From positions 11,952 through 75,951 of the forward strand of contig JAFTST010000051.1 in the NCBI GenBank assembly GCA_017467165.1: a stretch of DNA of 64,000 nt, given 5' to 3'. This document shows, in pieces, positions 8,564 to 60,731 of this stretch; the stretch's first letter is position 1, and every line of letters begins with the position of its first letter. Origin of the DNA: Clostridia bacterium. GTDB lineage: Bacteria > Bacillota > Clostridia > Oscillospirales > CAG-272. The translations under genes and the position numbers were made by a program. Under the pieces are notes generated by a model. That model was not told where the DNA came from and made no database searches. It saw nothing but the letters and a program-made list of their open reading frames with translations.

Positions 8564-8566
8564 TAT

Positions 8567-9653: not shown

Positions 9654-9673
<20 letters not shown>
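8567..9673 (+). CDS. recF: DNA replication/repair protein RecF
   Basis: N-terminal Walker A GKNAQGKTN, the SMC-like signature SQGQQRS, and Walker B FLFDDVLSELD. Its position after dnaN is canonical. Confidence 0.95.
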
Positions 9674-11878
<2,205 letters not shown>

Positions 11879-11895
11879 GAGGGGAGGGTGAAAAA

Positions 11896-35125: not shown

Positions 35126-35497
35126 AATCACCCAAGGGTGAGAAAACTCCCACCGCCGAGAAATCGGCGGTGGGTATAAAAAGAAAATGACACCAGGGCT
35201 CTGTCGGAAAAACGCGGACAGACGCCTGTGGCAAGGATATACGACCGGGAAAAAGCACTTGAAAATAAGAGTGACAGGGCGCCCCCGGCGAGCCCTGCGA
35301 GCCGTCACGGCTCGGAATAAAGGCGGGATGCGGTGGAAAAACGGCTCACCGCGAAATACAGGTCGCGGCGCGCAGAGGTCAAAGGGCTGTGAGATGCCGC
35401 GGGAATGACTTTCCTGAGGGAATAAAGATGCTTCTGACCTTTCGGAAAATGATAAATTGAAAGCAACAGCCCCGAGAGGGACTTAAAGGAGATATAT

Positions 35498-37096: not shown

Positions 37097-37218
37097 CCGA
37101 TGAAGGGCTGCCGCGCGGCAGAAAAGAGCTTTCGCGCGGGGTGGGGTCACTACAGCCCGAAGAAACAGTCAAAAAAATAAAAAACATATAGGCTCGTATG
37201 AGCCAAAAGGAGACGAAA

Positions 37219-39324: not shown

Positions 39325-39471
39325 GACATATTCGGGAATGGAATAACCCATTTTCAAAAGCCGACGCTTCGATGCGTTGAAAAAACAATTCAAGCCACGG
39401 GCTGTGACGGATTTTTCCCAAGGATTTCGCATCATAGCCCGATGCATAACGTCTGACTGAAAGGTATAAAA

Positions 39472-42597: not shown

Positions 42598-42685
42598 TGA
42601 CTTTGAGAATAAGTAACACTTCAGCAGAGTAAAATGAAACAGGCAGGGCGCCACGCGGGCGCCCAAGCCAAAAGGAGATTTAAAA

Positions 42686-43837
42686 ATGAGCAAGTTCACC
42701 TGCCCGTACTGCTACCGGATCCACGAGGAAAAGACCTGCGGCGTCAAGTGCTCCTATCGCAACCACAGAAACGTGATGGAAACCTGTGTCGACGCATCAA
42801 AGCCCGGCTTCGTTGACAGGAAGGACCAGTACGGATATATACTTCCGCAGTTCAGAAAGACCTGCGCTAAATGTAAGTCGGCGGGAATGAAATACTACTG
42901 CAACGTAGCTAACAAGGAAATCCCCCGCGACTTCCTCAACGGCCCCAGCTTTTCGGTAGCTATACTCGGAGCGAAGGCGTCGGGAAAGTCGAATTACATA
43001 GGCGTTCTTATCAACTCTATCAAAAACGAGATGTCCAAGAGCTTTAACTGTATTCTAAATACAGCGGCGAGCGAGGAGTCCTGGGACCAGTACAACAACC
43101 ACTACTACGAGCCCCTTTTCAATCAGAAGGTAGTTATTCCCGCTACGGCTAACGATATTCTGCCTCCTATGATATTCCCCCTTCGCTTCCTCGAGTCGAA
43201 GATGTTCAACAAGAATCAGTACAAGGTCGACAAGGTTGCCGCCCTGACCTTCTACGACACCGCGGGAGAGAAGCTTAACTCCACGGACACGATGCTGGCA
43301 GAGAACCAGTACATCACCAACGCTAACGGCATTATTCTTCTGCTCGACCCGCTTCAGGTTCCCTCTGTCAGAGAGCAGCTCCGCGGAAAGATGCAGCTCC
43401 CCGCGCAGAACTCGGATACCGCCGAGGTTCTGGCGAAGATTATTGAGACCATAAGAATGGTGAATAAGGTCAGAGGAATAATAGATATTCCCATCGCGCT
43501 CGTATTCACTAAAATAGACGTGCTTGAAAAGTTTGACCTTCTCAGAGAGAACAGCGTTCTGTATCAGGAGTCGGAGCATCTGGCGAGAGGTATTTTCGTC
43601 AAGGATGACTTCAACGCGGTTAACCGCGAGATGCGCGCACTGATAGACAACTGGGTGGACAGCGACCTGTCACAGCAGCTCAAAAACTTCAAGACTGTCG
43701 CTATGTTCGGCGTTTCGGCGCTTGGCGGAATTCCCGTCGGCGCAAAGCTTGAGGCGGGTAAGATAACCCCCCGCCGTGTGCTTGATCCTCTCCTGTGGCT
43801 GTTCGCAGAGAAGAAGTACATCAAAACCGATAGATAA
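42686..43837 (+). CDS. Zinc-ribbon-fused P-loop GTPase (soluble; TRAFAC-type motifs)
   Basis: N-terminal CPYC...CGVKC...CAKC...YYC. GTPase motifs are G1 GAKASGKS, G3 YDTAGE, G4 FTKID and G5-like VSALG. An AAGGAGA RBS is present. Confidence 0.85.
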   Translation: MSKFTCPYCYRIHEEKTCGVKCSYRNHRNVMETCVDASKPGFVDRKDQYGYILPQFRKTCAKCKSAGMKYYCNVANKEIPRDFLNGPSFSVAILGAKASGKSNYIGVLINSIKNEMSKSFNCILNTAASEESWDQYNNHYYEPLFNQKVVIPATANDILPPMIFPLRFLESKMFNKNQYKVDKVAALTFYDTAGEKLNSTDTMLAENQYITNANGIILLLDPLQVPSVREQLRGKMQLPAQNSDTAEVLAKIIETIRMVNKVRGIIDIPIALVFTKIDVLEKFDLLRENSVLYQESEHLARGIFVKDDFNAVNREMRALIDNWVDSDLSQQLKNFKTVAMFGVSALGGIPVGAKLEAGKITPRRVLDPLLWLFAEKKYIKTDR

Positions 43838-43852
43838 TTATAGGAGGATAAT

Positions 43853-46800: not shown

Positions 46801-46984
46801 CCCGAGATGCGGCGAGGTTGCAAGACGCCCCGAGGGTGAGAAGGAAAATGGACACAGATGCCCCGAGTGTGGCGCTCCCTATACGGAGAAGGACAGATTC
46901 TGCTCGAGCTGTGGAAAGCCCGTAGGAAAAAAGAGCGTTGATTGGAAAAAGAACAATGGCATAGACGAGGACGATAATGGCTGA
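43853..46984 (+). CDS. Large (1043 aa) mostly helical protein with an acidic/basic low-complexity tail and two C-terminal zinc ribbons
   Basis: AGGAGG RBS. The tail reads DDDEDEDDEDEDEKESD...RRPDGKQSAERRPDGKTPERPDPRKNEHRRPDTR, followed by CQRCG..CPRCG and CPECG..CSSCG. Confidence 0.8.
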   Translation: MKAYQMVYTACGKTKNGDYDVWGHSSALDYKECGEIDKIMSYQRPNGAPFQPTEEEIKQYFPKKYGYFYTSSGKACIAQSSHVGRVYSDVDERWGNYVTHALCFASDIDFSPFDIFGAPVFKDKLTYKEWHDDPSPESLPEIEVTIPKGRAVSGVPALLSDSRKKNMLPAFVQAVINTLETNDKAVVVSLSDEEIPTLLALVGVALPKFMHKKVTFQTQYRATGNYGDTTVRARVQFPLNRSTYGFVDDMRAGKTVFNFDTGDFTDVKVGGYVKGVFAALNGGIDAAERYAASIGKAMTELHCDIEAAALVGALMGGKYNDFDSPAHYESVLNMLIDAKYINKEEYASRVYSEIVAKAIWPFNTELSGLIRFAYENGGQSIRNELVFRVMKSLSAFGITLASPTEQAFDSFKRGLPIDYKGVVSAALTDQRWTALTESADEALTYVILRIYIDALKTPSASTAENYILRIAKKAYEKAGLDALVTNLSLLGDNKQLADRLIYSTVGALFGKGSLSEKELSLAFDGALLLSTRGARRDATLAIIKGSLNSPALISVYTDKKAANPQAFAELERELSGEAEFVEFVKRCRLLEFKNKQTVTPAELDRYFKEYYITGEDDGTYLKKLDALIGAKRQVGDAVEALLDVYTKNCPADDSSALCLDVVSYIEKKIFSYPLSELIKLRASVINQVAQIDARLKGARRQTSGQYELLYTAMLISRKTPREVLYAAVEGKKIYERLSPEKLELFARSFTTEAVALYVDMKRKDKKLGKQQLMTAIIHPLLSKVKDSNLYFTKAIKAQRFEDGAELVADLMCYAFNTEGGFADRARDFVKYYVSTLKRPEYKKLFKLIKAILTPKEYAGPKKFINDHLNNNRSFLEKLFGAKKAGDDDEDEDDEDEDEKESDSEKNKPVENKKDERRPDGKQSAERRPDGKTPERPDPRKNEHRRPDTRNWEDRPTDSSKHNEKNRKCQRCGNYYSSEKFSACPRCGEVARRPEGEKENGHRCPECGAPYTEKDRFCSSCGKPVGKKSVDWKKNNGIDEDDNG

Positions 46985-47279
46985 GTTAATCACGGGAATA
47001 CTTAGTGTTGCCATAGTGATAGCGGCGGCAATTCTCGCTATATTCGCTCTTGTGGCTTCCTGCTTCGCAGGAGCTGTTGCGGGAAGCGTGGGTGGCGGTG
47101 GAGCAGGACTTTTCCACACGCTAAAGACCTGCTTTCACACCGTCGACGTCGGCATTAAGAGCAAGGCTATGAGAATTGCAGTATTCGTTCTGCTCGGTCT
47201 TGTCGCTCTTCTTGCCGTAGGGCTCGCGGTGTACGCGATATGCCTGATTATCCCTCTGATAGCTAAGGGGGGCGTATGA
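46977..47279 (+). CDS. Small (100 aa) membrane protein with three predicted hydrophobic helices
   Basis: It overlaps the stop of the upstream gene by 8 nt and has an ATGA overlap with the downstream GTPase gene. Hydrophobic segments are ILSVAIVIAAAILAIFALVASCFAGAVAG and IAVFVLLGLVALLAVGLAVYAICLIIPLI. Confidence 0.65.
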   Translation: MAELITGILSVAIVIAAAILAIFALVASCFAGAVAGSVGGGGAGLFHTLKTCFHTVDVGIKSKAMRIAVFVLLGLVALLAVGLAVYAICLIIPLIAKGGV

Positions 47280-48724
47280 CGGATCCTGCTAAAATAAGCT
47301 ATATGTTCACCCTTGCGCCGATGGAATATTCCGACTCGGTGAAGGAAATATTTGAGGACTATATCAACGTTATCAAGAAGAATTTCGGCAAGCTGGAAAA
47401 CAAGTTCATTGACTTAACAAGGCTTGATTTCTCCGGAAACTTCTTTAACAGTCTGAAGTTCGGAAGCCTTTTCGCCTTGCAGCTTGGCTTTTTCTTCGGC
47501 GAGCTTTTGCTGCACGCGGTTCTTAGCGCGCTGTTTGGCGGTTTATTTATACTTCTGTACGGCGCGGCGGTCTATGGAATGAAGCTGTACGGATACGTGA
47601 CGATGGGTATTCTTCTTTCTATAGAGTACCTTTTCTCATTCTTCAAAAGAATTGCCTTTAGCTGTCCGAACTGTCAGGCGAAGCACAAAATGCCAACTTA
47701 TCTTTGCAAATGCGGCAGAAAACACAAAAAGCTGATGCCCTCGAGCGCCGGACTTCTCAAAAGAGAGTGTGTCTGCGGAGAAAAGCTCGCCTGCTCGCTG
47801 TTTTCGGGAAGGCACAGGCTCTCGGGAAGGTGGCTCTGTCCCGACTGCGACTATGAGATAGGTGGACCCTTGCATACGGATATACCGATTCCCGTTGTCG
47901 CAGGACCCAACGCGGGAAAAACCTGCTTTATCATCTCGGCTATAATGGAGCTCGAGAAGAATTCTGAGAGAAAGCACGACCTTCTTTTCGAGTATCACGA
48001 AAACCCGCAGCTTGGCGACGACTACTACGATAACAAGAGGCAGATAGAGAGGGGCAACGCTCCTCTGAAAACACGCGACAGCAGGCTTCGCTACTATCAG
48101 TTCTATCTTACCCCCAGGGGCAAAAAGATAAGAAATATGGTATCGCTGTGCGACGTCGCGGGAGAGGTATTCGCGCACGGGGACGACGTTATTCAGCCCG
48201 GCTTCAAAAACGCGGCGGCGTATCTTATTATCGTCGACCCGCTGTCAATCCCCGCCCTGAGAGCCGACCTCGACCCTGCCGTTGTGGCAAGGACACGCTT
48301 CAGCACGCGTCCTATGGACGAGGTAGTCAATATACTTATCAAGACCCTTGAGCTTTTCGGTGTCAAGGAGTCACAGCACGCGCATATCGATATAGCGGTA
48401 GTGTTCACCAAGTGCGACACTCCCGGTATCGACGACATCATAGGCAACAGGGCGGTTATGAGGACTATGCAGACCTCGGGTATTGAGTCAAGGCTCGAGG
48501 CGCAGAATGCCGTCTGTCAATCCGCGCTTATGAAATACGGCGAGGCTAACTTTCTCAACGCCATTCGCTCGCAGTTCAGAAGCCTGCAGTTTTTCACCAC
48601 CTCTGCTCTTGGCGAGAGTGGACAGGCATTTAATCCCATTGGCGTTGACGAGCCGATTCTCTGGCTTGTCGACAAGGTGAGCCCGGATATTAATCTGAAG
48701 GCGAAATGGGGAAAGAAAATTTAA
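47276..48724 (+). CDS. Membrane-anchored zinc-ribbon GTPase (paralog 2)
   Basis: The N-terminal hydrophobic region (about residues 60-125) is followed by CPNC..CKCG..CVCG..CPDC. GTPase motifs are G1 GPNAGKT, G3 CDVAGE, G4 FTKCD and G5-like TSALG. The C-terminal tail is INLKAKWGKKI. Confidence 0.85.
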   Translation: MTDPAKISYMFTLAPMEYSDSVKEIFEDYINVIKKNFGKLENKFIDLTRLDFSGNFFNSLKFGSLFALQLGFFFGELLLHAVLSALFGGLFILLYGAAVYGMKLYGYVTMGILLSIEYLFSFFKRIAFSCPNCQAKHKMPTYLCKCGRKHKKLMPSSAGLLKRECVCGEKLACSLFSGRHRLSGRWLCPDCDYEIGGPLHTDIPIPVVAGPNAGKTCFIISAIMELEKNSERKHDLLFEYHENPQLGDDYYDNKRQIERGNAPLKTRDSRLRYYQFYLTPRGKKIRNMVSLCDVAGEVFAHGDDVIQPGFKNAAAYLIIVDPLSIPALRADLDPAVVARTRFSTRPMDEVVNILIKTLELFGVKESQHAHIDIAVVFTKCDTPGIDDIIGNRAVMRTMQTSGIESRLEAQNAVCQSALMKYGEANFLNAIRSQFRSLQFFTTSALGESGQAFNPIGVDEPILWLVDKVSPDINLKAKWGKKI

Positions 48725-48887: not shown

Positions 48888-49553
48888 ATGGTTTTTTATA
48901 TCAGCTTTGGTATCATTCTTCTGGCTTTTGGAATATTCAACTACGTAGCGTCGATTTTATCCTCGAAGGGAAGACCGATATCGAGCTACGCTATGGCGGC
49001 GGTGCTCAGGTGCTTCGCGGTTGCCATTATGCTCGCCGTGACGGTCTGTCTGTGGTTCGCGACGCCTCGCCTTATCGATTTAGACTGGGATTATGAGGGC
49101 AGGGGGCTGCTTATAGTGGTTTCCTTATTCAACTCCATCATTCTGTGCAGTCTGCCCCTGCCGCTCGTTATACGCAGATTCGGCTCGTCCTTTAACTATA
49201 ACAGAACGAAATTCATGACCGCGTATATAGCGAATATTCTGGCGCTGCTTGCTATCGGATTTGTTGAAACGACGCTTATCTCGCTTGTGACCTACTCCAA
49301 CGCGCTATTTTATCACAGGGATTTCTGGGTCTATGCCTTCTACTTCATTTTCGCAGTCTGCGCGGGCGCGGCGGGATTTTTCTCCGCTTTCTCGGGCGAG
49401 GACGGAATTATCGACAGCTTCACCAGAGATAACTCGTCGATGTGGAATTATATAATGGGCTTCGGAGTATTTCTCCTTGCGGGATTCGCCGGAAACTACG
49501 TTATTATGTTCGTGGTATGGGTTATCCGCGGAATTATCGGTCTTTTCACTTAA
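48888..49553 (+). CDS. Polytopic membrane protein related at its N-terminus to the type A array proteins
   Basis: 221 aa with a GGAGGA RBS. The N-terminal IILLAFGIFNYVASI shares the G-x-x-NYV motif found at the N-termini of the type A proteins. Confidence 0.7.
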   Translation: MVFYISFGIILLAFGIFNYVASILSSKGRPISSYAMAAVLRCFAVAIMLAVTVCLWFATPRLIDLDWDYEGRGLLIVVSLFNSIILCSLPLPLVIRRFGSSFNYNRTKFMTAYIANILALLAIGFVETTLISLVTYSNALFYHRDFWVYAFYFIFAVCAGAAGFFSAFSGEDGIIDSFTRDNSSMWNYIMGFGVFLLAGFAGNYVIMFVVWVIRGIIGLFT

Positions 49554-49639: not shown

Positions 49640-51058
49640 ATGCAAAAACAACCTGCTCAAAAAAGTTACTTTTTTGACAAGGGCTACAAGGACGTCGGGA
49701 ACATTCTGAAAAAGACCTGGACCACCGCCTTCCGCCCTGTCACCAACGAGTTTTCGAGGGTGGTACAGCTTTTTGCCGACAACGTAGTTGCGGCAATCTT
49801 CACCGTCGTCGTTGACCTCGTCGTATTTTCCATCGTCACCGCGGCGATACTGCTCGGAGTTCTTATCTTCTCGGCAGTCTTCATCGCGGGTATTGCGGCA
49901 GCGGGCGTAGTGGTCTACGTTTTCTACTCGCTTCTGTTTCTGGCTGACTTCGTGTTCTGTCTTATTCAGCATATTTCCTCGCACTGCAGCGTGTGTCAGA
50001 ACAAGTTCCGTCTGCCATATTACAGATGCCCCAACCCCGCCTGCTCAAACGTACATACCGCCCTGCGCCCCAGCGTGTACGGTATTCTGAAAAGAAAGTG
50101 TAACTGCGGCAGAAAGCTGCCCACAACCTTCTTCAACGGCAGACAGAAGCTCGAGGCTATCTGTCCTCACTGTAACAAGAGAGTTGACGGCGGCGGAGAG
50201 CACACCGAGATAATGATTCCCATCGTCGGCGGCTCAAACTCGGGAAAGACCTGCTTCGTCAATATGGCTATCAAGCAGATTGAGGCCTGCGCCTCCCAGA
50301 ACGACCTCGTGTTCGAATACAATCCCACCCTTGACGATAATATGGGTGATATAAGAGCTACTATGGGCAGGGGTATGCTCCCCCCCAAGACCCGTGAGGA
50401 GAGAATGACCTACTACCGCTTCTACCTCACTCCCAAGGGAAAGAAGGTCAAGACCCTTATTTCTCTTTGTGACGTTGCGGGAGAGGCGTTTGACAACAAG
50501 GATAAGATTGGCGAGCAGATAGGCTACAAGAACGCTAACGCCTTCGTTATGGTGGTTGACCCGCTTTCCATTCCTGCCTTCTATATGGATCAGCAGAAGA
50601 AGATGAACGTCAATAACTACGCCAGAAGCACCAAGGCGCTTGACACCGTTCTCAACAACCTTATAGTAACGCTCGAGAGCCTTAAGTGCATCGACGCCAA
50701 GACTATGATAAAGACCGACGTCGTGGTGGTGTTCACCAAGTGCGATATTCCCGACCTGGTTAAGCGTATGGGTCCGCAGGCTGTACAGCAGTATATGTTT
50801 GACAACAATCTGCCCTCGAAGTTCGTCGCGCAGAACAAGCTGTGTGAGCAATTCCTGCTCGAGTACGGAGAGGCGAACTTCTTAAACTCTCTGCGCTCCA
50901 AGTTCCGCAGTATTCAGTTCTTCCCGACCTCTGCTCTCGGTCACGTACAGAACGGTATGAAATACGCTCCTCAGGGTGTTGAGGATCCTATTCTCTGGAT
51001 TATCGACAAGATTTCCGCGGGAATCAACCTCAAGAACAAGTGGGGCAAGAAAATTTAA
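49640..51058 (+). CDS. Membrane-anchored zinc-ribbon GTPase (paralog 3)
   Basis: It has the same architecture as 47276..48724. Cys motifs are CSVC..CPNPAC..CNCG..CPHC. GTPase motifs are G1 GGSNSGKT, G3 CDVAGE, G4 FTKCD and G5-like TSALG. The tail is INLKNKWGKKI. Confidence 0.85.
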   Translation: MQKQPAQKSYFFDKGYKDVGNILKKTWTTAFRPVTNEFSRVVQLFADNVVAAIFTVVVDLVVFSIVTAAILLGVLIFSAVFIAGIAAAGVVVYVFYSLLFLADFVFCLIQHISSHCSVCQNKFRLPYYRCPNPACSNVHTALRPSVYGILKRKCNCGRKLPTTFFNGRQKLEAICPHCNKRVDGGGEHTEIMIPIVGGSNSGKTCFVNMAIKQIEACASQNDLVFEYNPTLDDNMGDIRATMGRGMLPPKTREERMTYYRFYLTPKGKKVKTLISLCDVAGEAFDNKDKIGEQIGYKNANAFVMVVDPLSIPAFYMDQQKKMNVNNYARSTKALDTVLNNLIVTLESLKCIDAKTMIKTDVVVVFTKCDIPDLVKRMGPQAVQQYMFDNNLPSKFVAQNKLCEQFLLEYGEANFLNSLRSKFRSIQFFPTSALGHVQNGMKYAPQGVEDPILWIIDKISAGINLKNKWGKKI

Positions 51059-51074: not shown

Positions 51075-52040
51075 ATGCTTTTGATTGGCATACTGCTCGG
51101 CGTATTTATAATTACGGCGGGCGTTATCAACTACATATTCGTTGTCAGAAATCCGAACAGCTCGGGAGGAATATTCAACTTCCTTGGCTTCGCGGTTTCG
51201 GTTATGGTGACTACGCTGGCGCTTATTGTGATTAACACTCTGGGCGTATTTATACCTCAGTTTGTTTTCACCAATATTCACTGGGGCTGGCTGCTTGGCA
51301 TCAGCATCGTTTTGCTGATAACTATCTTCATTTTTGTGATAGCAGCCTTTAGTAGCTATTCTCGCTCTGATGCTGAGGAAACTATAGTCGGCATTACGGG
51401 ATTTATGCTTATTCCTCTGCTCGTTGTGCTGATTATGGCTCCTGTGAGAGCCGATATACATACCTACGAGCTCTCGGAAGCGAGGGACTTCAACCTTCTT
51501 AACAATCTTCCCACCGACTCGAAATATATCTATCACTTTGAGGTGACCGACGATATAGACTTCGAGGGTGAGAAAACGAGAATTGTCTACGGCAGGGAAA
51601 AGTTCACCTATTATATTGACGGAAACGGTCACACCCTCTCGGGCTTCGTCTGCGAGGATGATATCAAGGAGGACTGCTCGCTCTTCACGGCGGGTTATAT
51701 CGTCCTGGCTAATAGCGACGTCTATTACTCTAAAATTTCAAACATTACCCTCGACGGCTTCGTCCTGACCGTTGCTCCCAACGGATACGACAAGGAAAAC
51801 CGCGTAGGACTCAATCTCAATTACTCAATCTTCGATAAGGATATCGAGCTTGAGGGCGTTACTCTTAAGGCAGAGGTTATCATAGCGGACGAGGTTATCT
51901 ACAACCGCTCGCTGACCCCCTCTACCATAGCCTCGGTTTTGCCCGAGAGCGGTGAGGACGATAGGGGAAATAAATTCAACGTTACCGTCACAGGAGAGCT
52001 CTACAAGCCCGAGCCCGAGCCCGAGACGGACGCAGAATAA
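51075..52040 (+). CDS. Array protein type A, copy 1 (four N-terminal TM helices plus a roughly 190-aa C-terminal domain)
   Basis: Contains the NYI/NYV N-terminal motif, the HWGW motif (NIHWGWLLG), DIDFEGEKTRIVYGREKFTYYIDGNGHTLSGF, and LTVAPNGYDKE. Confidence 0.8.
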   Translation: MLLIGILLGVFIITAGVINYIFVVRNPNSSGGIFNFLGFAVSVMVTTLALIVINTLGVFIPQFVFTNIHWGWLLGISIVLLITIFIFVIAAFSSYSRSDAEETIVGITGFMLIPLLVVLIMAPVRADIHTYELSEARDFNLLNNLPTDSKYIYHFEVTDDIDFEGEKTRIVYGREKFTYYIDGNGHTLSGFVCEDDIKEDCSLFTAGYIVLANSDVYYSKISNITLDGFVLTVAPNGYDKENRVGLNLNYSIFDKDIELEGVTLKAEVIIADEVIYNRSLTPSTIASVLPESGEDDRGNKFNVTVTGELYKPEPEPETDAE

Positions 52041-52049
52041 GGAGGAAAA

Positions 52050-53057
52050 ATGATATTACCAATCGCTCTGGTCGTCATATTTGCCCTGACGGTCGGTGTC
52101 TACAACTACGTTACTATCAGCCGCGGCTCGTCGGGAAGGGGCTTTGCACTGGAAAGTCTTTATCTTGCCACCTTCGTTTCCTGCGGAATTATGCTGGTAG
52201 TCGGACTTTTGGCTATGAGAGCCCCGAGCTTTATTTTCACTTATATCCACTGGGGCTGGTTTCTCGCGTGCAGTATCGTCGTATTTTTGCTCTGCATATT
52301 TATGATGATACTTTTGATAAATGACAGCGCGGAGGCTTATTGGTCTGCTCTTGTTACCTTTATAGGCATTTTGGTTATAGTTTTCGGCATTGTAGCTCCC
52401 GTGAGAGCTGACAAGCACACCTATGAAATCAGCAAGCCCCAGCACTTCAACCTTCTCACCAACCTCCCCGGAGATAAGAAGAACGTCTACTACTTCGAGC
52501 TTGGCGATGATATCGACTTCACGGGCAAGAAGGTCAAGGACAGCTATGGCAGCAAGAGAGTGTGCTACCGCATCGACGGAAACGGACACTCTATTAAGGG
52601 TATATCCTATACCGCGGAGCTGAAGGAGGACGGATGTCTTTTCATTGGCGGAGAGGCGCAGGATGGCACAGGCAGCTATTATAGCTCTCGCATATCCAAC
52701 GTTGTCTTTGAGGATATGGTTCTCATTCTGACTCCCAACGCCTACGACGAGGACAGACACGAGGGTCTGTCGGTTAACTTCAATATGTTTTCCGAAATCG
52801 GCACAAGCCGTCACGTAAGCCTGGATAACGTTACCGTCAAGGCTAACGTCAGGGTTACCGAGGCTGTGGAAAATTATCGCTCTATAAATCCCTCCGAGGT
52901 TGGCGCTATCAATCTTGGAGAAGTAGACAGCGCGTACGTTGTCAACGAGAGTGACTTCGCTATAACCATCAATGATACCGAGGTTGCCTCTAAGGGTAAC
53001 TACACGCTTAATTATGAAATTCCCGAGGAAAATAACGGCGAGGAGGTAGAAGGATAA
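52050..53057 (+). CDS. Array protein type A, copy 2
   Basis: AAGGAGG RBS. Contains YIHWGWFLA, DIDFTGKKVKDSYGSKRVCYRIDGNGHSIKGI and LILTPNAYDED. Its stop overlaps the start of the type B gene at 53057. Confidence 0.8.
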   Translation: MILPIALVVIFALTVGVYNYVTISRGSSGRGFALESLYLATFVSCGIMLVVGLLAMRAPSFIFTYIHWGWFLACSIVVFLLCIFMMILLINDSAEAYWSALVTFIGILVIVFGIVAPVRADKHTYEISKPQHFNLLTNLPGDKKNVYYFELGDDIDFTGKKVKDSYGSKRVCYRIDGNGHSIKGISYTAELKEDGCLFIGGEAQDGTGSYYSSRISNVVFEDMVLILTPNAYDEDRHEGLSVNFNMFSEIGTSRHVSLDNVTVKANVRVTEAVENYRSINPSEVGAINLGEVDSAYVVNESDFAITINDTEVASKGNYTLNYEIPEENNGEEVEG

Positions 53058-54247
53058 TGGTAGCTATAACCTATCTTGTTATCGCGGCGATAGTCGGAAT
53101 TATCGCGGCTATTGGCTTTATCGGTGTATTTAACTTCTTCGGCACCTTCTTTATCACCTTTATCGCCGCCTTCTGTATCGGTATGTTCATAGAAACCGTA
53201 GACCAGGGCTGTAACACCGGTCTTGACTCGGCTAACGAGGTGTTCGAGGTGCTGGGTATAGATTACGGCGGACTGTGGGTGCTTTTAGGATTACCCGGAC
53301 TCGTCTATATAGTTATGTTCCTTTTCTGCGGCGTATTTATGGCTCCCTTCTGGTTCTTGGTCGAGGATTGCAGGACATATAAGACGGTCACCAGAACGGT
53401 GCAGTGGGTTGCCGTTGGTATTCTCTCAATTTCGACGGTGGTCTGCGCCCTTATGTTCCTCGCTCCCACCTTCCTTTACTCGCTTATGCACTGGGGCTGG
53501 CTGTTCGGTATTCTTATTGCAGCGTCTGTGCTCGTTATAGTTGCTCTGCCGATGGTTGATAACAACTACTACTCCTTCGGCGGCCCGCTATACAACATTC
53601 TTCTTATCGTGGCTATCGCTATTATTCCCGTGACTGTCACGGGTCTTATCGTGTCCTCGAATCACACTCACTTTATCGGAAGCGCGTTTGAGATGAACGC
53701 CTTCGGAAACGCTCCTCAGGGCAAGAATACCGTTTTCGTGCTTGAAAACGACATTGATTTTGAGGGCGAGGAGGTTCGCTGGTTCGGAGAGTACAAGAAC
53801 TTCAAGGGTATGTTCAACGGTCAGGGACACACTCTCTCCAACTTCAAGGTTACAGACAGGGTGAGAAATCTCAAGACCGAGGGCGATTACAAGGGCACCG
53901 GCCTTGTTATCAGCAACAACGGTATATTCAGAGATCTGAAGATTGACGGCGCTCTTATCTCCGTGGAATTGCCGAAGGAATACTACGGCACTATCAATGT
54001 TGGTATGTTTGCCGCGGAAAACCTGAACGGAAAATACCTCAACTGCGTGACCACAGGCTCGGGCATAAGAATAGAAAAAAATGAAACCTACGACAGCCAA
54101 AAGGTATATAGGAGCTTCAGAGTAGGAAATTGGAACAACGGCGTTGAGGGTATAAGCGCTAGTAACAACGGCGGAGAGCATCGCTTCCCTGAGGAAATGC
54201 GAAATGATACGACTAAGCGCTGGGAATATTACCCCGAAACCGAATAA
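53057..54247 (+). CDS. Array protein type B, copy 1 (longer polytopic TM region plus C-terminal domain)
   Basis: Contains LMHWGWLFG, MNAFGNAPQGKNTVFVLENDIDFEGEEVRWFGEYKNFKGMFNGQGHTLSNF and GLVISNNGIFRDLKI. Confidence 0.8.
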   Translation: MVAITYLVIAAIVGIIAAIGFIGVFNFFGTFFITFIAAFCIGMFIETVDQGCNTGLDSANEVFEVLGIDYGGLWVLLGLPGLVYIVMFLFCGVFMAPFWFLVEDCRTYKTVTRTVQWVAVGILSISTVVCALMFLAPTFLYSLMHWGWLFGILIAASVLVIVALPMVDNNYYSFGGPLYNILLIVAIAIIPVTVTGLIVSSNHTHFIGSAFEMNAFGNAPQGKNTVFVLENDIDFEGEEVRWFGEYKNFKGMFNGQGHTLSNFKVTDRVRNLKTEGDYKGTGLVISNNGIFRDLKIDGALISVELPKEYYGTINVGMFAAENLNGKYLNCVTTGSGIRIEKNETYDSQKVYRSFRVGNWNNGVEGISASNNGGEHRFPEEMRNDTTKRWEYYPETE

Positions 54248-54259
54248 CGGAGAATTTTT

Positions 54260-55231
54260 ATGTACTTATTTTTGATTATTGCGGGCGTTTTCGTGCTTAT
54301 CGCGGGTGGAACTAACTACGTTCTCGTTCTGAAAAATCGCTCTGCCAGATCAATGGTCAGCTCGAAGGGCTTGCTCGTCGCATTCTTTGTGGCGAGCCTG
54401 TTGACGTTTCTTTATAACGTCCTTGTCAACGTTGCTCCTAAGTATGCCTTTTTGTACGTGCATTACGGCTGGTTTTACGGAATAAGCATCGCTGTGTTTA
54501 TTCTCTCCTTGATACTCGGCGTTTTGCAGCTGTTTATCTACAACAAGCATAGCTTTGAGAGAAAGACTAACCTCGGCGTATCGCAGATACTCGTCGGTAT
54601 ATGCGTGCTTATACTAATGATCGGAGGTGGCAAGGCGGCGGCAAGCGGCGCCTACGAGCTATCGGAGCCCCGCGACTTCAAGCTTTTAGAAAATATTCCC
54701 TCGGAGGACGACAGCTATTCGTATTTTTATCTTTCCTCGGACATTGACTTCGAGGGGCAGACGGTGACAGAGCCCTTCGGCAGAGAGGGAGCGAGATACA
54801 CCATCAACGGCAACGGACACACCATCTCCAATCTCAACGCAGAGCTTGTCCTGACGGAAAAGGTGAGCGCACTGTTTTTAAACTCGTATAGCGTTGCGTC
54901 CGATGGATATACGGGTGGAATATCTATATCAAGGCAAGTAAACTCTATATATGATCTGAAATTTGACGGCTGCTCCTTCACCCTGACGCCTAACGGATAT
55001 GACGAGGACAGCTTTTCGTCCTATAAGTGCGACTTTGCTCTGATGAAAAAGAGCGATGCGGAGGCTATCGCGGGCAGCGAAATAACTATGACTAATACTA
55101 CCGTGACGGTTAAGCCTGCCATAGAAAATATCCGCTCCATTGATAAAACCTCGATTGGCGAGATATTCGCGGAGCTTGTGGGAAGCGACCTTTTGGGACT
55201 TAATATAGTCAGAGAGGAGGAGAGCGAATGA
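54260..55231 (+). CDS. Array protein type A, copy 3
   Basis: Contains YVHYGWFYG, DIDFEGQTVTEPFGREGARYTINGNGHTISNL and FTLTPNGYDED. It has an ATGA overlap with the next type B gene. Confidence 0.8.
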   Translation: MYLFLIIAGVFVLIAGGTNYVLVLKNRSARSMVSSKGLLVAFFVASLLTFLYNVLVNVAPKYAFLYVHYGWFYGISIAVFILSLILGVLQLFIYNKHSFERKTNLGVSQILVGICVLILMIGGGKAAASGAYELSEPRDFKLLENIPSEDDSYSYFYLSSDIDFEGQTVTEPFGREGARYTINGNGHTISNLNAELVLTEKVSALFLNSYSVASDGYTGGISISRQVNSIYDLKFDGCSFTLTPNGYDEDSFSSYKCDFALMKKSDAEAIAGSEITMTNTTVTVKPAIENIRSIDKTSIGEIFAELVGSDLLGLNIVREEESE

Positions 55232-56415
55232 TTATTTTTCTGTTTTCCCTCTTTCTCGGATTTATGATGGGATTTGCGCTTGGTAGCGGCGGAGCCTTTA
55301 TTCTCGTTTCTGTTGGCTCATTCTGGCTTCTGACCTTCGTTAATACGGTGGCGAACCGTACGAATCTCGGCTTTCGCGGCGCTGTAAATGGATTTTTAGC
55401 GCTTGCTCAGCACCCTTTTCTCTGGTTTATTCAGCTTTTGCCCCTGCAGGTTTTCGTCTGGTGCGCTCTTTTCGGCGGCATCGGACTTGCTCCCCTGTGG
55501 TATATGATAGACCACGGAAAGGCATTCTTCCGCGCGCTGGGAAGGTTCTTTCGCTTTATATGGAAGCTCTTTATTATGGCGATACCGTTTGTCCTCGCGC
55601 CTGTTATCCTTCTTGGCTTGGCGGCGGGTGTTATCTTGATAATTAAGCCCGTATTTGTATACTCTTATTTACATTGGGGTGTTCTTATCGCTATATCGGC
55701 GGGTGTTTTGCTGCTCAGTGTATTCTTCTGTTCGCTTGCGATAAGAAAGCACTATGTTACTCGCGTGTACAACAGGATTGCAAGGGTCTTGGGTATTATC
55801 GTTCTTCCGCTGGTTATTTTGGGTGTTATGCTTTCTCTTGGAAAGACCTTTGAGATTTCCACAGCCAGAGAGATGAACGCCTTTGGAAACGCGCCCTGTA
55901 CCAAGAATACGCTCTTCATCATAACCGAGGATATTGACTTCGGGGGAGAGGAAGTAGGCTGGTATTCTGCGTATGAGGATTTCAAGGGTGCTATCGACGG
56001 CAGAGGACACACGCTCTCGAATTTTGAGGCGGAGGTTCCGGTTAAGAAAACCAAGAGCGACACCAGCGTCGGACTTGTCAGGAAAAACCACGGACTTATC
56101 AAGAACCTGAGCTTCAGGGACTCAAAAATCTACGTAACCTCGGACGGATATTTCTATCTTAATGCAGTCGGCGTCATCGTTGGCGAAAACTACGGAAAGG
56201 TTGCAAGTTGCTCGGTCGAGGGCGTTGAACTCTATATAGCGCAGGGCATCGAGGTGCGGGACGATGATTATTCGCTCACCGTTGGTTGGGACAACGAGTT
56301 GCGGGTTGGGGTTATCGACGTTTTGGGAAAAATTCCCGAGTATCCCGAGCCTGATGAGTATGACGGTTATTATTACAGAAAGGGCATTCCCTACAACGCG
56401 GTTTTTGAGGAATAA
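55228..56415 (+). CDS. Array protein type B, copy 2
   Basis: Contains YLHWGVLIA, MNAFGNAPCTKNTLFIITEDIDFGGEEVGWYSAYEDFKGAIDGRGHTLSNF and GLVRKNHGLIKNLSF. Confidence 0.8.
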   Translation: MIIFLFSLFLGFMMGFALGSGGAFILVSVGSFWLLTFVNTVANRTNLGFRGAVNGFLALAQHPFLWFIQLLPLQVFVWCALFGGIGLAPLWYMIDHGKAFFRALGRFFRFIWKLFIMAIPFVLAPVILLGLAAGVILIIKPVFVYSYLHWGVLIAISAGVLLLSVFFCSLAIRKHYVTRVYNRIARVLGIIVLPLVILGVMLSLGKTFEISTAREMNAFGNAPCTKNTLFIITEDIDFGGEEVGWYSAYEDFKGAIDGRGHTLSNFEAEVPVKKTKSDTSVGLVRKNHGLIKNLSFRDSKIYVTSDGYFYLNAVGVIVGENYGKVASCSVEGVELYIAQGIEVRDDDYSLTVGWDNELRVGVIDVLGKIPEYPEPDEYDGYYYRKGIPYNAVFEE

Positions 56416-56424
56416 GCAGCAATT

Positions 56425-56796
56425 ATGTATTTCACTTATCTTTTCTGGATTGCCGTGGCGCTTGCCTGCAGCACGGTTAACTACGTCTATGCTGTGAAAA
56501 ACAAGAAAAGCATCGAACCGAAAACGGTTTTAGGGATTTCCCGTCGCTATGGCTTTTTCACTGCGTCCGCTGTGATTTTTGTCTATACCGTTATTCTTCT
56601 TGCGGATTCGAGCCTCGCGTATGTCCTTGGAAGACCCGCTACCGTGTTTTTCTACTCGGTTATAGTCGCCATAGACGCCACGGTAACGCTGGCTATGGAT
56701 TTGCGCGCCTTTATAAGAAACAGGACGCTTCGTGTCAGCGACGTTATCTATATCGCGGCTTCCTTTTTCTCGCTTATTGTTCTATCAACCTTTTGA
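56425..56796 (+). CDS. TM-only type A module (123 aa), either truncated or a stand-alone version
   Basis: It aligns with the N-terminal TM region of 57470..58396 (STVNYVYAVKNKK versus GTVNYVYAVKRKK). It stops exactly where the C-terminal domain would begin. The RBS is weak. Confidence 0.55.
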   Translation: MYFTYLFWIAVALACSTVNYVYAVKNKKSIEPKTVLGISRRYGFFTASAVIFVYTVILLADSSLAYVLGRPATVFFYSVIVAIDATVTLAMDLRAFIRNRTLRVSDVIYIAASFFSLIVLSTF

Positions 56797-56931
56797 GATT
56801 TGACGTACCGTTTATTAGATATGGGGCGAGCGCGGGGTTAAATATGCCCTAAGATTGACACGCCCCACCCCCTCTAAGCTCCGCGGATCTTTTTATCGAA
56901 GTGCTTTTTATCAAAAAACGGAGAGTTTTAT
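56797..56931 (+). repeat. Conserved intergenic element, copy 1 (GGGGCG ... TTGACACGCCCCACC ... TAAGCTC ... AAAAAACGGAG)
   Basis: It shares the 15-nt core TTGACACGCCCCACC and most flanking positions with 57328..57469. Confidence 0.7.
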
Positions 56932-57327
56932 ATGTATTTAATTATTATTATATTGGCTGTCGCGGTGATTACCAGCGGTGTGTTTAACTACGTACATGCG
57001 CTGAAAAACAATAACGTTCTTTTGCCGAAAATCATTTTTGCTCTTTCCAGAAGAGCTGCCTTCAGGTCGGCGGCATCCGTGCTTCTTGCGTACGTTATCC
57101 TGTATTTCATATCTCCCGACACAGCGCTCGTGCTGGCTCGTCCCGCTACGGCGCTCATTCCTGCGGTTATCGTCGTTATAGACGCCGCGATAACGCTGTT
57201 CTGGACTGTGTTTGTCTTTATCAAATATAAGGTGTCGCTTCGTTCAAGCCTGATTATCAGATACGTCCGCGATTTTATTTATATTGCGGCTTCGGTTTTC
57301 TGTCTGATTGCTATTTCGAGCTTTTAA
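56932..57327 (+). CDS. TM-only type A module (131 aa), second copy
   Basis: GGAGAG RBS. It begins MYLIIIILAVAVITSGVFNYVHALKNNN and ends IYIAASVFCLIAISSF, parallel to 56425..56796. Confidence 0.6.
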   Translation: MYLIIIILAVAVITSGVFNYVHALKNNNVLLPKIIFALSRRAAFRSAASVLLAYVILYFISPDTALVLARPATALIPAVIVVIDAAITLFWTVFVFIKYKVSLRSSLIIRYVRDFIYIAASVFCLIAISSF

Positions 57328-57469
57328 GTTTTTTTAAGACTTGAATTTTTTCTGACGGGGCGTGCAGAGGGGCTTGATTTCCCAAGGGTTGACACGCCCC
57401 ACCTCTTTTAAGCTCGGCTTGGGTATTTCTGTAAATTGACGCCCGAGTCGAAAAAACGGAGTATTTTCT
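57328..57469 (+). repeat. Conserved intergenic element, copy 2
   Basis: Contains the inverted repeat GGGGCGTG ... CACGCCCC, the core TTGACACGCCCCACC, TAAGCTC, and the leader AAAAAACGGAGTATTTTCT before the ATG. Confidence 0.7.
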
Positions 57470-58396
57470 ATGTACTTACTTATTATTCTTGGCGTTGCCG
57501 TGGCGCTCAGCTGCGGCACTGTAAATTACGTTTATGCTGTGAAAAGAAAAAAAGGCACCTCGTCCGCGGGAGCAGCTGTGGTGACCTATCACGCGGCAAT
57601 GATGTCGGCGATGGCGGTGGTGCTTATTTTCAATGCTCTTCTCGTGAGCTCGCCCGAGTTCGCTCTCAGGCTTGCAGACTGGAAAACCGCTCTTATTATC
57701 AGTATCATCGTTATGGCTGACAGGGGAGCGGTGTGCGCCGTTCTGGGCTATAAATATGCGAACAAGCATCTTGTGTCAAGCTACGCTCACACGATCTCCT
57801 TCACTATGGCGGCAATGGCGCTGGTATTTCTTTTATACAGCTCATTTACTATTGATAAGCACGTGTTCGTTGTGGACGAGGCGAGCGACCTTGAAATAAT
57901 CGAGAGGCTGCCCGCGGGGGACAGGGTATATACCTTCGTTCTGGAGAGTGACCTGGATTTTTCGGATGAAGAATTACGTTTCGAAGGCTACGGCAGCGAG
58001 AAGGTGTCGTACGTCATTGACGGTAAGGGTTACACCGTCAGTGGAATAAGATATTACGCAGAGCTTACAGGCAACTTCACTCTTTTCCGCTCAAGCGGCT
58101 CTGACGAGTGCGCGGTGAGAAATCTGACGCTTGCTGACTGCACCTTCGCTATCGCTCCGAACAGTTATGACAATTCCACTCACAAGGGTCTTGGCTGCGG
58201 CTTCTATTTTTCAAGCCTTGATAAGTCGGCGCTTGAAAACGTGACCGTCAGGGAGGTTGAGATAATAGTTAAGCCGGCGGTCGAGAATATCAGAGCGAAT
58301 AACCTATCGTACGTGTACGACGAGCTTGTTGATACCGAGTATCACGAGGGTGACGTTTCTTTAAGCATCAAGGTTACAAGGGAGGAACAGCCGTGA
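57470..58396 (+). CDS. Array protein type A, copy 4
   Basis: Contains DLDFSDEELRFEGYGSEKVSYVIDGKGYTVSGI, FAIAPNSYDNS and KPAVENIRANN. It overlaps the GTG start of the next type B gene. Confidence 0.8.
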   Translation: MYLLIILGVAVALSCGTVNYVYAVKRKKGTSSAGAAVVTYHAAMMSAMAVVLIFNALLVSSPEFALRLADWKTALIISIIVMADRGAVCAVLGYKYANKHLVSSYAHTISFTMAAMALVFLLYSSFTIDKHVFVVDEASDLEIIERLPAGDRVYTFVLESDLDFSDEELRFEGYGSEKVSYVIDGKGYTVSGIRYYAELTGNFTLFRSSGSDECAVRNLTLADCTFAIAPNSYDNSTHKGLGCGFYFSSLDKSALENVTVREVEIIVKPAVENIRANNLSYVYDELVDTEYHEGDVSLSIKVTREEQP

Positions 58397-59628
58397 TTTA
58401 TTTAATAACCTCTGTCGCCCTCGCGATAGTGTTCGCCGTCGCCTTTGGCGGAGTGATGGGGCTCGTTTTTGCCTTTATCGTGGGCTTCTGGTGCGCGTTT
58501 TCCCTGATGGCGTCTGTTGACACCCTTGTTACAGGAAACAACAGAGGAGTCGATTGGGCGAAAAACACACTCCTCCTCGGACTTCGAAATCTTTATAAGG
58601 GCTGGTATTTCCTGCTTGTTCCGCTTTCCGCGGTCGTGCTTGTTGTGTGCGGATTTCTTCTTGCGCCCCTGTGGTTTCTTTTGCAATACTTATATAATCT
58701 CGGTAGCAGGGTTGATAACATTGCAGCACAGGCGGGGGCGAAAATTATCTCGTTTTTTGACACGGTATGGTACGTCCCGTATATTCTTGGCATTTGTGTG
58801 CTTGCCGGACTTTCCATATTCACCTTCGCGGCGCCCGCGCAGATATATAGACATATGCATTGGGGCTGGTGGATTGCTATAATTTCACTTCTTTGTATTC
58901 TGCTTGTGGTCGTCGTGGGAATAAGGCGCAGCGACCGCTATATCAAGAGCGGCAGAGCTACCTTCGCTTTGTGCCTCCTTTCTCTTGCCGCTATACCCGT
59001 GGTTGCGCTCGCGATACACTCCTCGACTAACGAGATATATTATATCAGCGACCGGGGAGATATGCGTATTTTCGGTAACGCGCCACAGAATCAGGATACC
59101 GTATTCGTGCTTGAGAACGATATTGACTTCGGTGGAAAGCGCGTGCGCTGGTTTGGAAAGTATACCGAATTCAAGGGCGTTTTCGACGGCAAGGGTTATA
59201 CCCTCTCGAATTTTAAGGTAAAGAAGAACGCGGTCTCAACGAACAGCAGCTATACCGATGGCACGGAGGGACTATCTTTGCCGCATGCGCTTGGATTGGT
59301 CGTGAGAAATCACGGCGTACTTCGCAACCTCAATATCTCTGATGCTAAAATTACTATGGGCTATAACTCACTTATGCCAAACGTGTGCTACGGCACCCTC
59401 GCGGGTATCAATGCCTCGGGCGGCAGCGTCGTTGATTGCTCGGTTGTGGATTGCATCGCAACGTACGTCAAGCCGAAAAGGGATACTATCAGAGCTTTTA
59501 TGACCGTCGGCAAGAACGTGGGAGAGGTGAGAGTTACGGAGAGCTATTCTCCCGACTACAAGCCTGATGCGTCCTTTGTTCAGGAGGGATGGGTGCTCGT
59601 TCCTCAGATTTCAGGAACTACGGAGTAG
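58393..59628 (+). CDS. Array protein type B, copy 3
   Basis: GTG start with a GGGAGGA RBS. Contains HMHWGWWIA, IFGNAPQNQDTVFVLENDIDFGGKRVRWFGKYTEFKGVFDGKGYTLSNF and GLVVRNHGVLRNLNI. Confidence 0.8.
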   Translation: MIYLITSVALAIVFAVAFGGVMGLVFAFIVGFWCAFSLMASVDTLVTGNNRGVDWAKNTLLLGLRNLYKGWYFLLVPLSAVVLVVCGFLLAPLWFLLQYLYNLGSRVDNIAAQAGAKIISFFDTVWYVPYILGICVLAGLSIFTFAAPAQIYRHMHWGWWIAIISLLCILLVVVVGIRRSDRYIKSGRATFALCLLSLAAIPVVALAIHSSTNEIYYISDRGDMRIFGNAPQNQDTVFVLENDIDFGGKRVRWFGKYTEFKGVFDGKGYTLSNFKVKKNAVSTNSSYTDGTEGLSLPHALGLVVRNHGVLRNLNISDAKITMGYNSLMPNVCYGTLAGINASGGSVVDCSVVDCIATYVKPKRDTIRAFMTVGKNVGEVRVTESYSPDYKPDASFVQEGWVLVPQISGTTE

Positions 59629-59630: not shown

Positions 59631-60662
59631 ATGGTTAACGAGTACTATAAATCAAGGCTCCCCGCGCATCAGAGAAAGGTGTATGAGGATGCGGTAAGGG
59701 TTTTCTCGGAGGGAGGATGTCGAGTTCATTTCACCACAACGCACGAGCAGGCGTTCGACACTTATACCGCGGTGTATAACGACCACCCCGAGCTGTTTTA
59801 TATGTCCAACGGCGCCAAGGCAGAGGTGAGAAGCATTCTCGGGGGTATAAGGTGCGGTACGCTTATATCCGAGCATATATATACGCCGCATGAGATTATC
59901 CGCTTCAAGACGGGTATGAAAAGAGAGCTCTTCAAGCTGAGGGAGCTGACACGGGGCTGTACTTCTCAGCTCGAGGTCGAGAAGATAGTCTGCGATTATA
60001 TTATCGAGAACGTCACGTATTCTGTCAACCACAGGTTTCATCAGAACGCAGCCTCGGTGCTGGTCAATTTCATCGGTCAGTGCAGCGGTATATCCAAGGC
60101 GGTCAAGTATCTTTTTGACAATCTCGGTATTGAGTGCATCTACGTCACGGGTGAGGGCGGAGACCCGACGGGAGCTGAGCCCTGGGGACCTCACGCCTGG
60201 AATATAGTCAAGATTGACGGTGTGTATTATCACCTTGACGTCACCTTCATGCTCGGCTGTAACCCCCTCAAGAAGAAGCCCTACTATCGCGGCTACCTCA
60301 ACTGGTCGGACGCAGATATGGCGGACAGCCACGTCTGGAAAAGAGGGGATTTCCCCGCTTGTACAAGCAGTATGAAGGGCGACGAGGTAGAGGACCTGAT
60401 GACTATCAAGCGCGAGGACGTCGGCGATACGGTTATCAGCTCGTACGCGGAGTTCAGAGTCAGACTGACAGAGGCGCTTGAAAAAAGAGCGCCCTCGCTG
60501 TGCTTCACCTCGGAGATTGCAGAGCCTAACCAGAAAAGGCTGATGCAGAGGCTGATGGCGGATACCAAGCTCGTGGCGGAGAAGCTCGGCGTTGGTATGG
60601 GTGTGAGCCTCACCTGCCAGAATAACAGGGTGAAGCTGGAATTTACCTGGAGTGACGAATAA
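59631..60662 (+). CDS. Transglutaminase-like (papain-fold Cys-His-Asp) domain protein
   Basis: I chose the start at MVNEYYK, 3 nt after the stop of the preceding gene, with a GGAG RBS. The catalytic-core pattern is GQCSGISKAVKYLFDNLGIECIYVTG...GPHAWNIVKIDGVYYHLDVTF. No signal peptide or TM helix is present. Confidence 0.75.
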   Translation: MVNEYYKSRLPAHQRKVYEDAVRVFSEGGCRVHFTTTHEQAFDTYTAVYNDHPELFYMSNGAKAEVRSILGGIRCGTLISEHIYTPHEIIRFKTGMKRELFKLRELTRGCTSQLEVEKIVCDYIIENVTYSVNHRFHQNAASVLVNFIGQCSGISKAVKYLFDNLGIECIYVTGEGGDPTGAEPWGPHAWNIVKIDGVYYHLDVTFMLGCNPLKKKPYYRGYLNWSDADMADSHVWKRGDFPACTSSMKGDEVEDLMTIKREDVGDTVISSYAEFRVRLTEALEKRAPSLCFTSEIAEPNQKRLMQRLMADTKLVAEKLGVGMGVSLTCQNNRVKLEFTWSDE

Positions 60663-60685
60663 CCTCCGAAAGAGAGGAATGAAAA

Positions 60686-60712
60686 AAAGGAGAGGCAAAT
60701 TGCCTCTCCTTT
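60686..60712. terminator. Bidirectional intrinsic terminator between the cluster and the convergent ileS
   Basis: AAAGGAGAGGCA aat TGCCTCTCCTTT is a perfect hairpin flanked by an A-tract and a T-containing tract. Confidence 0.8.
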
Positions 60713-60731
60713 CGCTATATATGCGGTTATA

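Follow-up and report, generated by a model that had tools for sequence, protein, structure and literature searches.

Conflict systems built on DO-GTPases and GAP1-N2 were predicted computationally by Kaur, Burroughs, Iyer and Aravind (2020, eLife 9:e52696, PMC7159879). These include an HSP70 theme, in which Hsp70 paralogs occur with GrpE and with an FNIII-repeat protein fused to DnaJ or TPR (PMC7159879). Here we analyzed a locus of this kind in a stretch of 64,000 nucleotides from a Clostridia bacterium (assembly GCA_017467165.1, contig JAFTST010000051.1, positions 11,952 to 75,951 of the forward strand; the whole stretch is referred to as the window). At the 3' end of its GTPase/Hsp70 operon the window carries an array of nine genes for membrane proteins of two types, here named A and B. 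From the sequence we consider it about an even bet (probability of roughly 0.5) that complexes of A and B provide the GTPase/Hsp70 machinery with a variable layer of extracytoplasmic sensors or anchors.

The operon resembles the described systems in several respects. It contains GAP1-N2, three DO-GTPase2 paralogs (one of them with N-terminal transmembrane (TM) helices and zinc ribbons), Hsp70 paralogs and a vWA domain. The neighbourhood of GAP1-N2 and DO-GTPase genes, which marks a GAP1-N2-type system, was found with Pfam. TM components with ectodomains and the variation of components between close relatives are further points in common. In contrast to the described systems, the A/B cassette also occurs outside such operons, and FNIII, DnaJ and GrpE gave no Pfam match among the operon open reading frames (ORFs) scanned. 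The text and one supplement of PMC7159879 mention no family of TM proteins with a GLUG or beta-helix domain, no A-B pair and no transglutaminase-like partner. A literature search returned no paper with an experimentally defined trigger or sensor for GAP1-N2 systems. The class of system and the type of head domain are already known. Undescribed in the sources searched are the A/B family, its pairing with a peptidase, the expansion into an array with cassette replacement, and the fusions of the module to TIR and kinase-like domains.

The array consists of nine co-oriented ORFs in the order A1, A2-B1, A3-B2, a1, a2, A4-B3, lower-case letters denoting TM-only relatives of type A (Table 1). Gene number, order and coordinates were all as given in the initial annotation, and the overlaps TAATG, ATGA and GTGA at the three A-B junctions also read as claimed there. 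B thus starts 1-4 nt inside the A stop in the window, whereas in seven other cassettes the distance from the A stop to the B start is 1-10 nt. In the four cassettes whose junction was read, a Shine-Dalgarno sequence lies within the last A codons. A1 has no B gene directly after it. Gene order and translational coupling suggest that A and B may form heteromers.

Profile and BLASTP comparisons show that the nine genes are true paralogs, far beyond chance. Pairwise BLASTP gave E values of 1e-20 to 1e-65 within A and within B, and of 1e-7 to 1e-14 for A versus B. With family hidden Markov models, hmmsearch against all 518 ORFs of the window recovered the seven full-length genes (E 1e-21 to 1e-135) and also matched the TM-only a1 and a2 (E 4e-8 to 7e-5). 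The sole further match was a weak one to the 221-aa multi-TM protein encoded upstream of the array (Table 1). Identity between paralogs was 20-39%. Scans of A and B with Pfam, NCBIfam and PADLOC gave no significant family, and none of the three collections holds a model for them.

The motifs were less uniform than proposed. An HWGW motif common to both types was found broadly, but A4 lacks it (ADWK), A3 reads HYGW and B2 HWGV. The shared C-terminal signature DIDFxG...[FI][DN]GxG was present, whereas its spacer comprised 15-16 residues and not the 8-13 claimed. In A4 the DIDF core is replaced by DLDFSD, and A2 carries a GHSIKG variant. In A1 the first TM helix contains G-x-x-N-Y-I followed by a basic loop, and HWGW stands at residue 69. 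The TM-only a1 has neither head nor HWGW.

AlphaFold2 models built with the family alignment agreed with the expectation of about four TM helices in type A and a longer TM region in type B. The model of A2 (predicted local distance difference test, pLDDT, 82; predicted template-modelling score, pTM, 0.75) contained helices at 2-24, 31-57, 68-89 and 93-118 followed by beta strands. The model of B1 (pLDDT 84, pTM 0.73) contained six long helices and an all-beta head. The heads of both models were all-beta with short regular strands.

The heads can be compared with the GLUG domains (PF07581) of Gram-positive surface proteins, which occur for example in the N-terminal region of M26 IgA1 proteases. 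Both have the cap DIDFxG...FxGxFDGxGHT[LI]SN and the rung GL[VF]..N.G.I.NL. However, the window proteins carry a single head of ~180-200 aa on a base of 3-6 TM helices and not repeats within a secreted giant protein, and type A has PN[GAS]YD and ENIR motifs in place of the GLUG rung. An exhaustive HMMER search of 1.84e9 representative sequences with the B-family profile matched 6582 proteins, among which ~22 clusters were full-length B proteins. Many matches were restricted to the head region (about 195-340 of the profile), which was repeated 3-13 times in proteins of 1000-7000 aa. Others comprised the head and the preceding helices within larger multidomain proteins.

GLUG-rich giant proteins matched the B profile with E values of 1e-25 to 1e-50 (1e-27 to 1e-35 for P0043, P0051, P0059 and P0039). 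The head-repeat giants that were scanned in turn scored Pfam Glug at 1e-41 to 1e-52, one of them also matching the IgA1-protease N-terminal region; P0007 has the cap in common and matched Pfam Glug at 6e-5. The likeness of the C-terminal signature to GLUG, proposed in the initial annotation, is thereby supported by profile homology with E values down to 1e-50, and by homology the head is assigned to the GLUG-type beta-helix domains as a short member. Within the window the sole Glug match was B2 (14.1 bits, E 0.064); the ortholog B381 in the close relative L001 scored 17.5 bits. A3 had a weak match to Pfam Pectate_lyase_5 (E 0.03). The weak Foldseek matches of the B1 model, all at E >= 0.07, were pectate lyases, SV2 luminal domains, IgA1 protease (7uvl/7jgj), a phage 'IgA1 protease' and tailspikes; the A2 model was without match. 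Neither a search of the PDB sequences with the B profile nor tblastn of B1 against collections of phages and plasmids gave a match, an additional word-indexed protein search returned no further family members, and the matches of a metagenome scan were mostly generic GLUG.

Four independent arguments strongly predict that the head is extracytoplasmic: loop charge, TIR fusions, a kinase fusion, and LRR or lectin domains trailing the head. The initial annotation had placed the C-terminal domain outside by the positive-inside rule, on account of a basic loop after the first TM helix, and the counts agree. In B the loops TM3-4 and TM5-6 hold 2.7 and 2.1 basic residues versus 0.8 in the HWGW loop; in A the TM1-2 loop holds 2.4 and the HWGW loop is poor in basic residues. 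The B profile also matches the C-termini of proteins of 950-1500 aa, where it covers the last three helices and the head. Eight out of ten such proteins contain a TIR domain near residue 180-290, ~500-800 residues upstream of the module and usually together with TPR repeats; ahead of the first helix there is a K/R-rich stretch. Since the three helices follow a cytoplasmic N-terminal region of 750-970 residues, the head would come to lie outside. In lineage L055, A is replaced by a fusion protein of 664 aa. Its parts are a domain resembling Ser/Thr kinases (E 1e-5 by phmmer against PDB), a zinc ribbon, three helices that include HWGW, and a head of type A (E 2e-85 with the profile). LRR_5 (BspA-type) or C-type lectin domains trail the head in P0094, P0085 and P0042.

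The N-terminal helix of A, of the TM-only a proteins and of the 221-aa protein carries G-x-x-N-Y-[IV] and basic residues. In lineage L053 a secreted PPC-repeat protein is anchored at its C-terminus by the same G-x-x-N-Y-I helix, which argues for an N-out, C-in orientation of this helix. We propose a three-helix core shared by A and B: a TM helix, an H[WFY]GW loop on the outer face, a second TM helix, a basic inner loop, a third TM helix and then the outer head. To this core A would add one N-terminal helix (N-out) and B three.

In P0074, P0073, P0094, P0040, P0045, P0050, P0077 and P0086 (950-1500 aa), which come from other organisms, the full layout is zinc ribbon, TPR, TIR, TPR, K/R-rich coil, three helices and GLUG-like head. 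P0094 has BspA-type LRRs after the head, a layout which recalls that of a Toll-like receptor. In L050 a TIR-type gene with the three helices and head comes after a gene with Band_7_1 and double zinc ribbon.

Single-pass receptors that join an ectodomain to a cytoplasmic signalling domain are represented by the PASTA Ser/Thr kinases (PknB/PrkC) and the Toll-like receptors. The relatives of A and B likewise join an outside head (sometimes with LRRs), a TM part and a cytoplasmic kinase-like or TIR domain. The analogy is a functional one only and no homology of the ectodomains is claimed: the A/B relatives have three TM helices and the reversed domain order, with the cytoplasmic part N-terminal. 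Moreover, A and B of the window lack a cytoplasmic domain and would depend on a partner protein.

A candidate for such a partner is encoded next to the array. A membrane-anchored DO-GTPase2 of 472 aa, composed of an N-terminal tail, a TM hairpin, zinc ribbons and the GTPase domain, ends 16 nt before A1. At the other end, a gene for a transglutaminase-like thiol peptidase begins 3 nt after B3. It has no signal peptide, and its Cys/His/Asp triad is intact and invariant. The longest ORF of this gene would start at 59589 and overlap B3 by 40 nt; we placed the start at ATG 59631, because the orthologs (341-343 aa) start 3 nt after the preceding gene.

The A/B family appears to be rare and confined to Clostridia-like metagenome genomes. 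In every lineage with a readable upstream gene an A-type gene immediately precedes B. Leaving the short contig L051 out of the linkage counts, A-B was found directly after the TM-anchored DO-GTPase2 in four of the seven informative lineages, namely the window group (the window with L001 and L005), L003, L053 and L054. All four also have the peptidase downstream. L003 and L053 carry a single A-B pair, L054 a 681-aa gene between B and the peptidase, and the window group the expanded array. The core proteins of these four lineages are 30-62% identical, at a GC content of 35% vs 50%. The remaining three lineages lack the GTPase gene upstream. L010 has no peptidase either and its neighbours are envelope genes (a Flg_new lipoprotein, Acyl_transf_3). 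In L052 an A-B and then an a-B pair stand among housekeeping genes (GlyRS, rnpA/rpmH), and the contig ends before the position of the peptidase. In L055 the order is kinase-A fusion, B and peptidase. The peptidase thus follows B in five of six informative lineages.

The linkage to GTPase and Hsp70 genes that had been expected elsewhere holds in the four divergent lineages and not in the three without nearby GTPase genes. Because A-B cassettes occur there without the GTPase, they are not an obligate part of GAP1-N2 systems. The conserved unit is A-B(-peptidase), which is often but not always joined to a GAP1-N2 system, and the array of the window is a lineage-specific expansion of a single pair as in L003, L053 and L054.

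Several of these relatives showed features of their own. The 681-aa protein of L054 (11190-13235) combines an A-type TM region with a different, much larger head and a Gly-rich (GGxGG) tail, so that the A-type membrane base can carry other heads. The L055 cassette (8003-12156) comprises the genes for the 664-aa fusion, B and the transglutaminase-like protein; upstream lie a PP2C phosphatase and two LRR_5 surface proteins, with no GTPase within 10 kb. In L003 (12205-13472) and L053 (12177-13434) the transglutaminase-like gene is followed by genes for a conserved protein of 113-115 aa and a multi-TM protein of 299-301 aa (33-44% identity between the two lineages). The window has neither of the two, and IleRS is the next gene there.

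The array differs even between near-identical strains. DNA identity between the window and L005 was 97-98% in the flanks vs about 91% in the interior of the array. By blastn, a segment including most of A4 and all of B3 (Table 1) had no nucleotide similarity to the relatives except for ~200 nt of the head core. The relatives carry A305-B381-B419 in its place, with a protein identity to A4/B3 of 46-49% and a saturated synonymous rate (dS). Additionally, L005 has an extra A before A1, a1 has an ortholog in L005 and is absent from L001, and both relatives carry an extra copy (236 aa) of the 221-aa TM gene.

Orthologs of the array genes had ratios of nonsynonymous to synonymous rates (dN/dS) of about 0.10-0.35 versus 0.03-0.21 in the flanks, and of 0.09-0.22 for a2. 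These low values mean that the array genes, a2 included, are maintained by purifying selection. In the heads of A2 and A3 dS reached 0.8-1.3 versus 0.25-0.47 in their TM parts, while dN/dS was 0.1-0.5 throughout. Such fast divergence of the heads with proportionally high dS points to the exchange of old alleles. Positive selection on the heads was considered and rejected in view of dN/dS values of at most 0.5 and the high dS. Long near-identical DNA repeats or inverted repeats were not found in the array, which therefore gives no indication of a diversity-generating retroelement, an invertible segment or recent gene conversion. The view that the copies are old and retained rather than recent can be kept in part: the paralogs are old and the genes maintained, but recent duplication, loss and cassette replacement have occurred as well.

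From this we suggest the following mechanism. In the window the cassette is attached to the 3' end of a GAP1-N2-type operon, directly after the membrane-anchored GTPase. A and B would be membrane-embedded receptors with beta-helix heads facing outward, which might bind a cue on the envelope side, for instance a phage, an adjacent cell or damage to the cell wall. As they have no cytoplasmic domain, they would act together with a partner anchored in the membrane, in this case the DO-GTPase2. A signal could then cross the membrane to this GTPase and pass via GAP1 to the Hsp70/vWA machinery and the peptidase. With several diverged and often exchanged heads the specificity would be wider, in the manner of a recognition repertoire. 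The system may serve in defence.

A number of observations weigh against such a sensor layer. As described above, L010, L052 and L055 carry A-B without GTPase genes in reach. The ratio of A to B in the array is 4:3 plus two TM-only genes and not 1:1, and both the A-B and the A/B-GTPase interactions are putative. The TM hairpin is the least conserved part of the GTPase (19% invariant), which lends no support to a conserved docking site or a fixed TM-TM interface there; contact with A/B, if any, may instead involve the conserved juxtamembrane tails. With regard to the heads, no window protein reached the Pfam Glug gathering score of 20.5 bits, Foldseek found no significant structural match (A2 and B1 against PDB, B1 against BFVD; no E < 0.07), and dN/dS gave no sign of positive selection. 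In PADLOC-DB 2.0, A1, B1, the GTPases, GAP1, Hsp70-vWA and the peptidase were all without meaningful match. Finally, the literature search returned no experiment showing that GAP1-N2 systems defend against anything.

Among the other explanations, A and B could be autonomous envelope proteins, adhesin-like or binding wall or polysaccharide, which vary under host or phage pressure and adjoin the GTPase without signalling. GLUG domains are indeed typical of large surface proteins, the pairs of L010 and L052 adjoin housekeeping or envelope genes, L009 has a PGA_cap neighbour, and copy number and alleles differ between strains. However, the order TM-GTPase, A, B, transglutaminase is kept at 30-62% identity, and other proteins join the module to cytoplasmic domains of TIR or kinase-like type. 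Furthermore, the + strand of the array contains no terminator-like site above 8 stem pairs or 4 G-C pairs. We therefore regard autonomous envelope proteins as unlikely. The number of terminator-like sites in the region is at chance level, and its only strong terminator hairpin lies 3' of the transglutaminase-like gene.

The heads might also be a passive tether, which fixes the GTPase/Hsp70 assembly to a site of the envelope (wall polymer, septum) without sensing, as has been proposed for SH3, PEGA and other wall-binding domains on some DO-GTPases. Peptidoglycan-binding ectodomains are found on GAP1-N2 components (PMC7159879), beta-helix domains commonly bind glycans, and pectate lyases and tailspikes were among the weak Foldseek matches of B1. 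A mere anchor would have no need of 7-9 diverged and rapidly exchanged heads, and we doubt this explanation quite strongly.

That A, B and the TM-only a proteins are effectors, their helical bundles permeabilising or remodelling the membrane when the GTPase fires in the manner of the SLATT-type pore formers of related systems, is the least credible of the three. In its favour, TM effectors often stand at the end of GAP1-N2 systems (PMC7159879), the TM regions show good conservation between orthologs, and a2 is under purifying selection. Against it, a pore former needs no conserved extracytoplasmic ligand-type head, the fusions put the module at the input end with TIR or kinase as output, neither Pfam, NCBIfam and PADLOC nor Foldseek gave a significant similarity to SLATT or pore families, and constitutive multi-copy toxin arrays without obvious immunity genes would be unusual.

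The array is a candidate for the input side of the system: a small, clonable A-B-peptidase cassette with a head predicted to face outward, which is exchanged between near-identical strains. According to the prevailing view, most bacterial conflict systems recognise invaders within the cell. Sensing of envelope events by the heads would be an unusual mode for them and would open the question to direct tests. A tentative extension, to which we give distinctly less credence than to the sensor layer itself, is that three TM helices with a GLUG head are a general outside-in pattern-recognition receptor of Gram-positives. It might report surface events (phage adsorption, cell contact, wall damage) to interchangeable cytoplasmic immune outputs, i.e. 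TIR domains, Ser/Thr kinases or, in the window, the membrane-anchored DO-GTPase together with GAP1, Hsp70/vWA and the thiol peptidase, with arrays of exchangeable A-B heads as a germline-encoded repertoire. If so, bacteria would have a counterpart to Toll-like receptors and receptor kinases, and the uncharacterised GAP1-N2 systems their first proposed input. If A and B are only surface proteins, the array would still be a clean example of cassette turnover in a family without a Pfam, NCBIfam or PADLOC model.

Table 1. Positions of the array genes, the GTPase/Hsp70 operon and further features in the window
Feature	Position	Strand	Remarks
GAP1-N2 system core	33518-48724	+	Pfam
Hsp70 paralog	33518-35125	+	Pfam
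Hsp70 paralog	35498-37096	+	Pfam
Hsp70 paralog	37198-39324	+	Pfam; carries vWA
Zinc-ribbon protein	39472-42597	+	1041 aa; Pfam, zinc ribbons only
DO-GTPase2	42686-43837	+	PF19993
GAP1-N2	43853-46984	+	PF20013, E 4.4e-15
Second DO-GTPase2	47276-48724	+	PF19993
Multi-TM protein	48888-49553	+	221 aa; A-profile E 0.003; G-I-F-N-Y-V and basic motif
Membrane-anchored DO-GTPase2	49640-51058	+	472 aa; PF19993, E 2.6e-12
A1	51075-52040	+	type A, 321 aa; 4 TM helices, GLUG-like head
A2	52050-53057	+	type A, 335 aa; stop overlaps B1 start (TAATG)
B1	53057-54247	+	type B, 396 aa; 6 TM helices, GLUG-like head; family profile
A3	54260-55231	+	type A, 323 aa; HYGW; overlaps B2 start (ATGA)
B2	55228-56415	+	type B, 395 aa; HWGV
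a1	56425-56796	+	TM-only type A relative, 123 aa; A-profile E 1.6e-5
38-nt intergenic repeat, copy 1	56847-56884	+	after a1; contains TTGACA; 82% identical to copy 2
a2	56932-57327	+	TM-only type A relative, 131 aa; profile E 4e-8
38-nt intergenic repeat, copy 2	57381-57418	+	after a2
A4	57470-58396	+	type A, 308 aa; degenerate motifs; overlaps B3 start (GTGA)
Replaced segment	57700-59620	+	most of A4 and all of B3; blastn
B3	58393-59628	+	type B, 411 aa; GTG start; N-terminus matches other B proteins
Transglutaminase-like thiol peptidase	59631-60662	+	343 aa; PF01841, E 5e-12
Strong hairpin terminator	60685-60713	-	between the transglutaminase-like gene and the convergent IleRS gene

The gene for the 221-aa multi-TM protein stands between two DO-GTPase2 genes. 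Judged by its profile score and motif, this protein may be a remote TM-only relative of A and a.

A repeat of 38 nt is present in the spacers after a1 and a2 and contains TTGACACGCCCCACC...TAAGCTC. This repeat could act as an internal promoter or be the remnant of a duplication unit made up of an a gene and its spacer. A promoter scan did not flag the two copies, and an Rfam scan of the window gave no RNA family.

The window is chromosomal, with gyrB and gyrA at 9920-14472 and RNase J at 16283-17956. A stretch of low GC content (34-42% vs about 50%) at 18-24 kb contains ParB (19760-20650, - strand), ParA (21361-22122, - strand) and unannotated ORFs.

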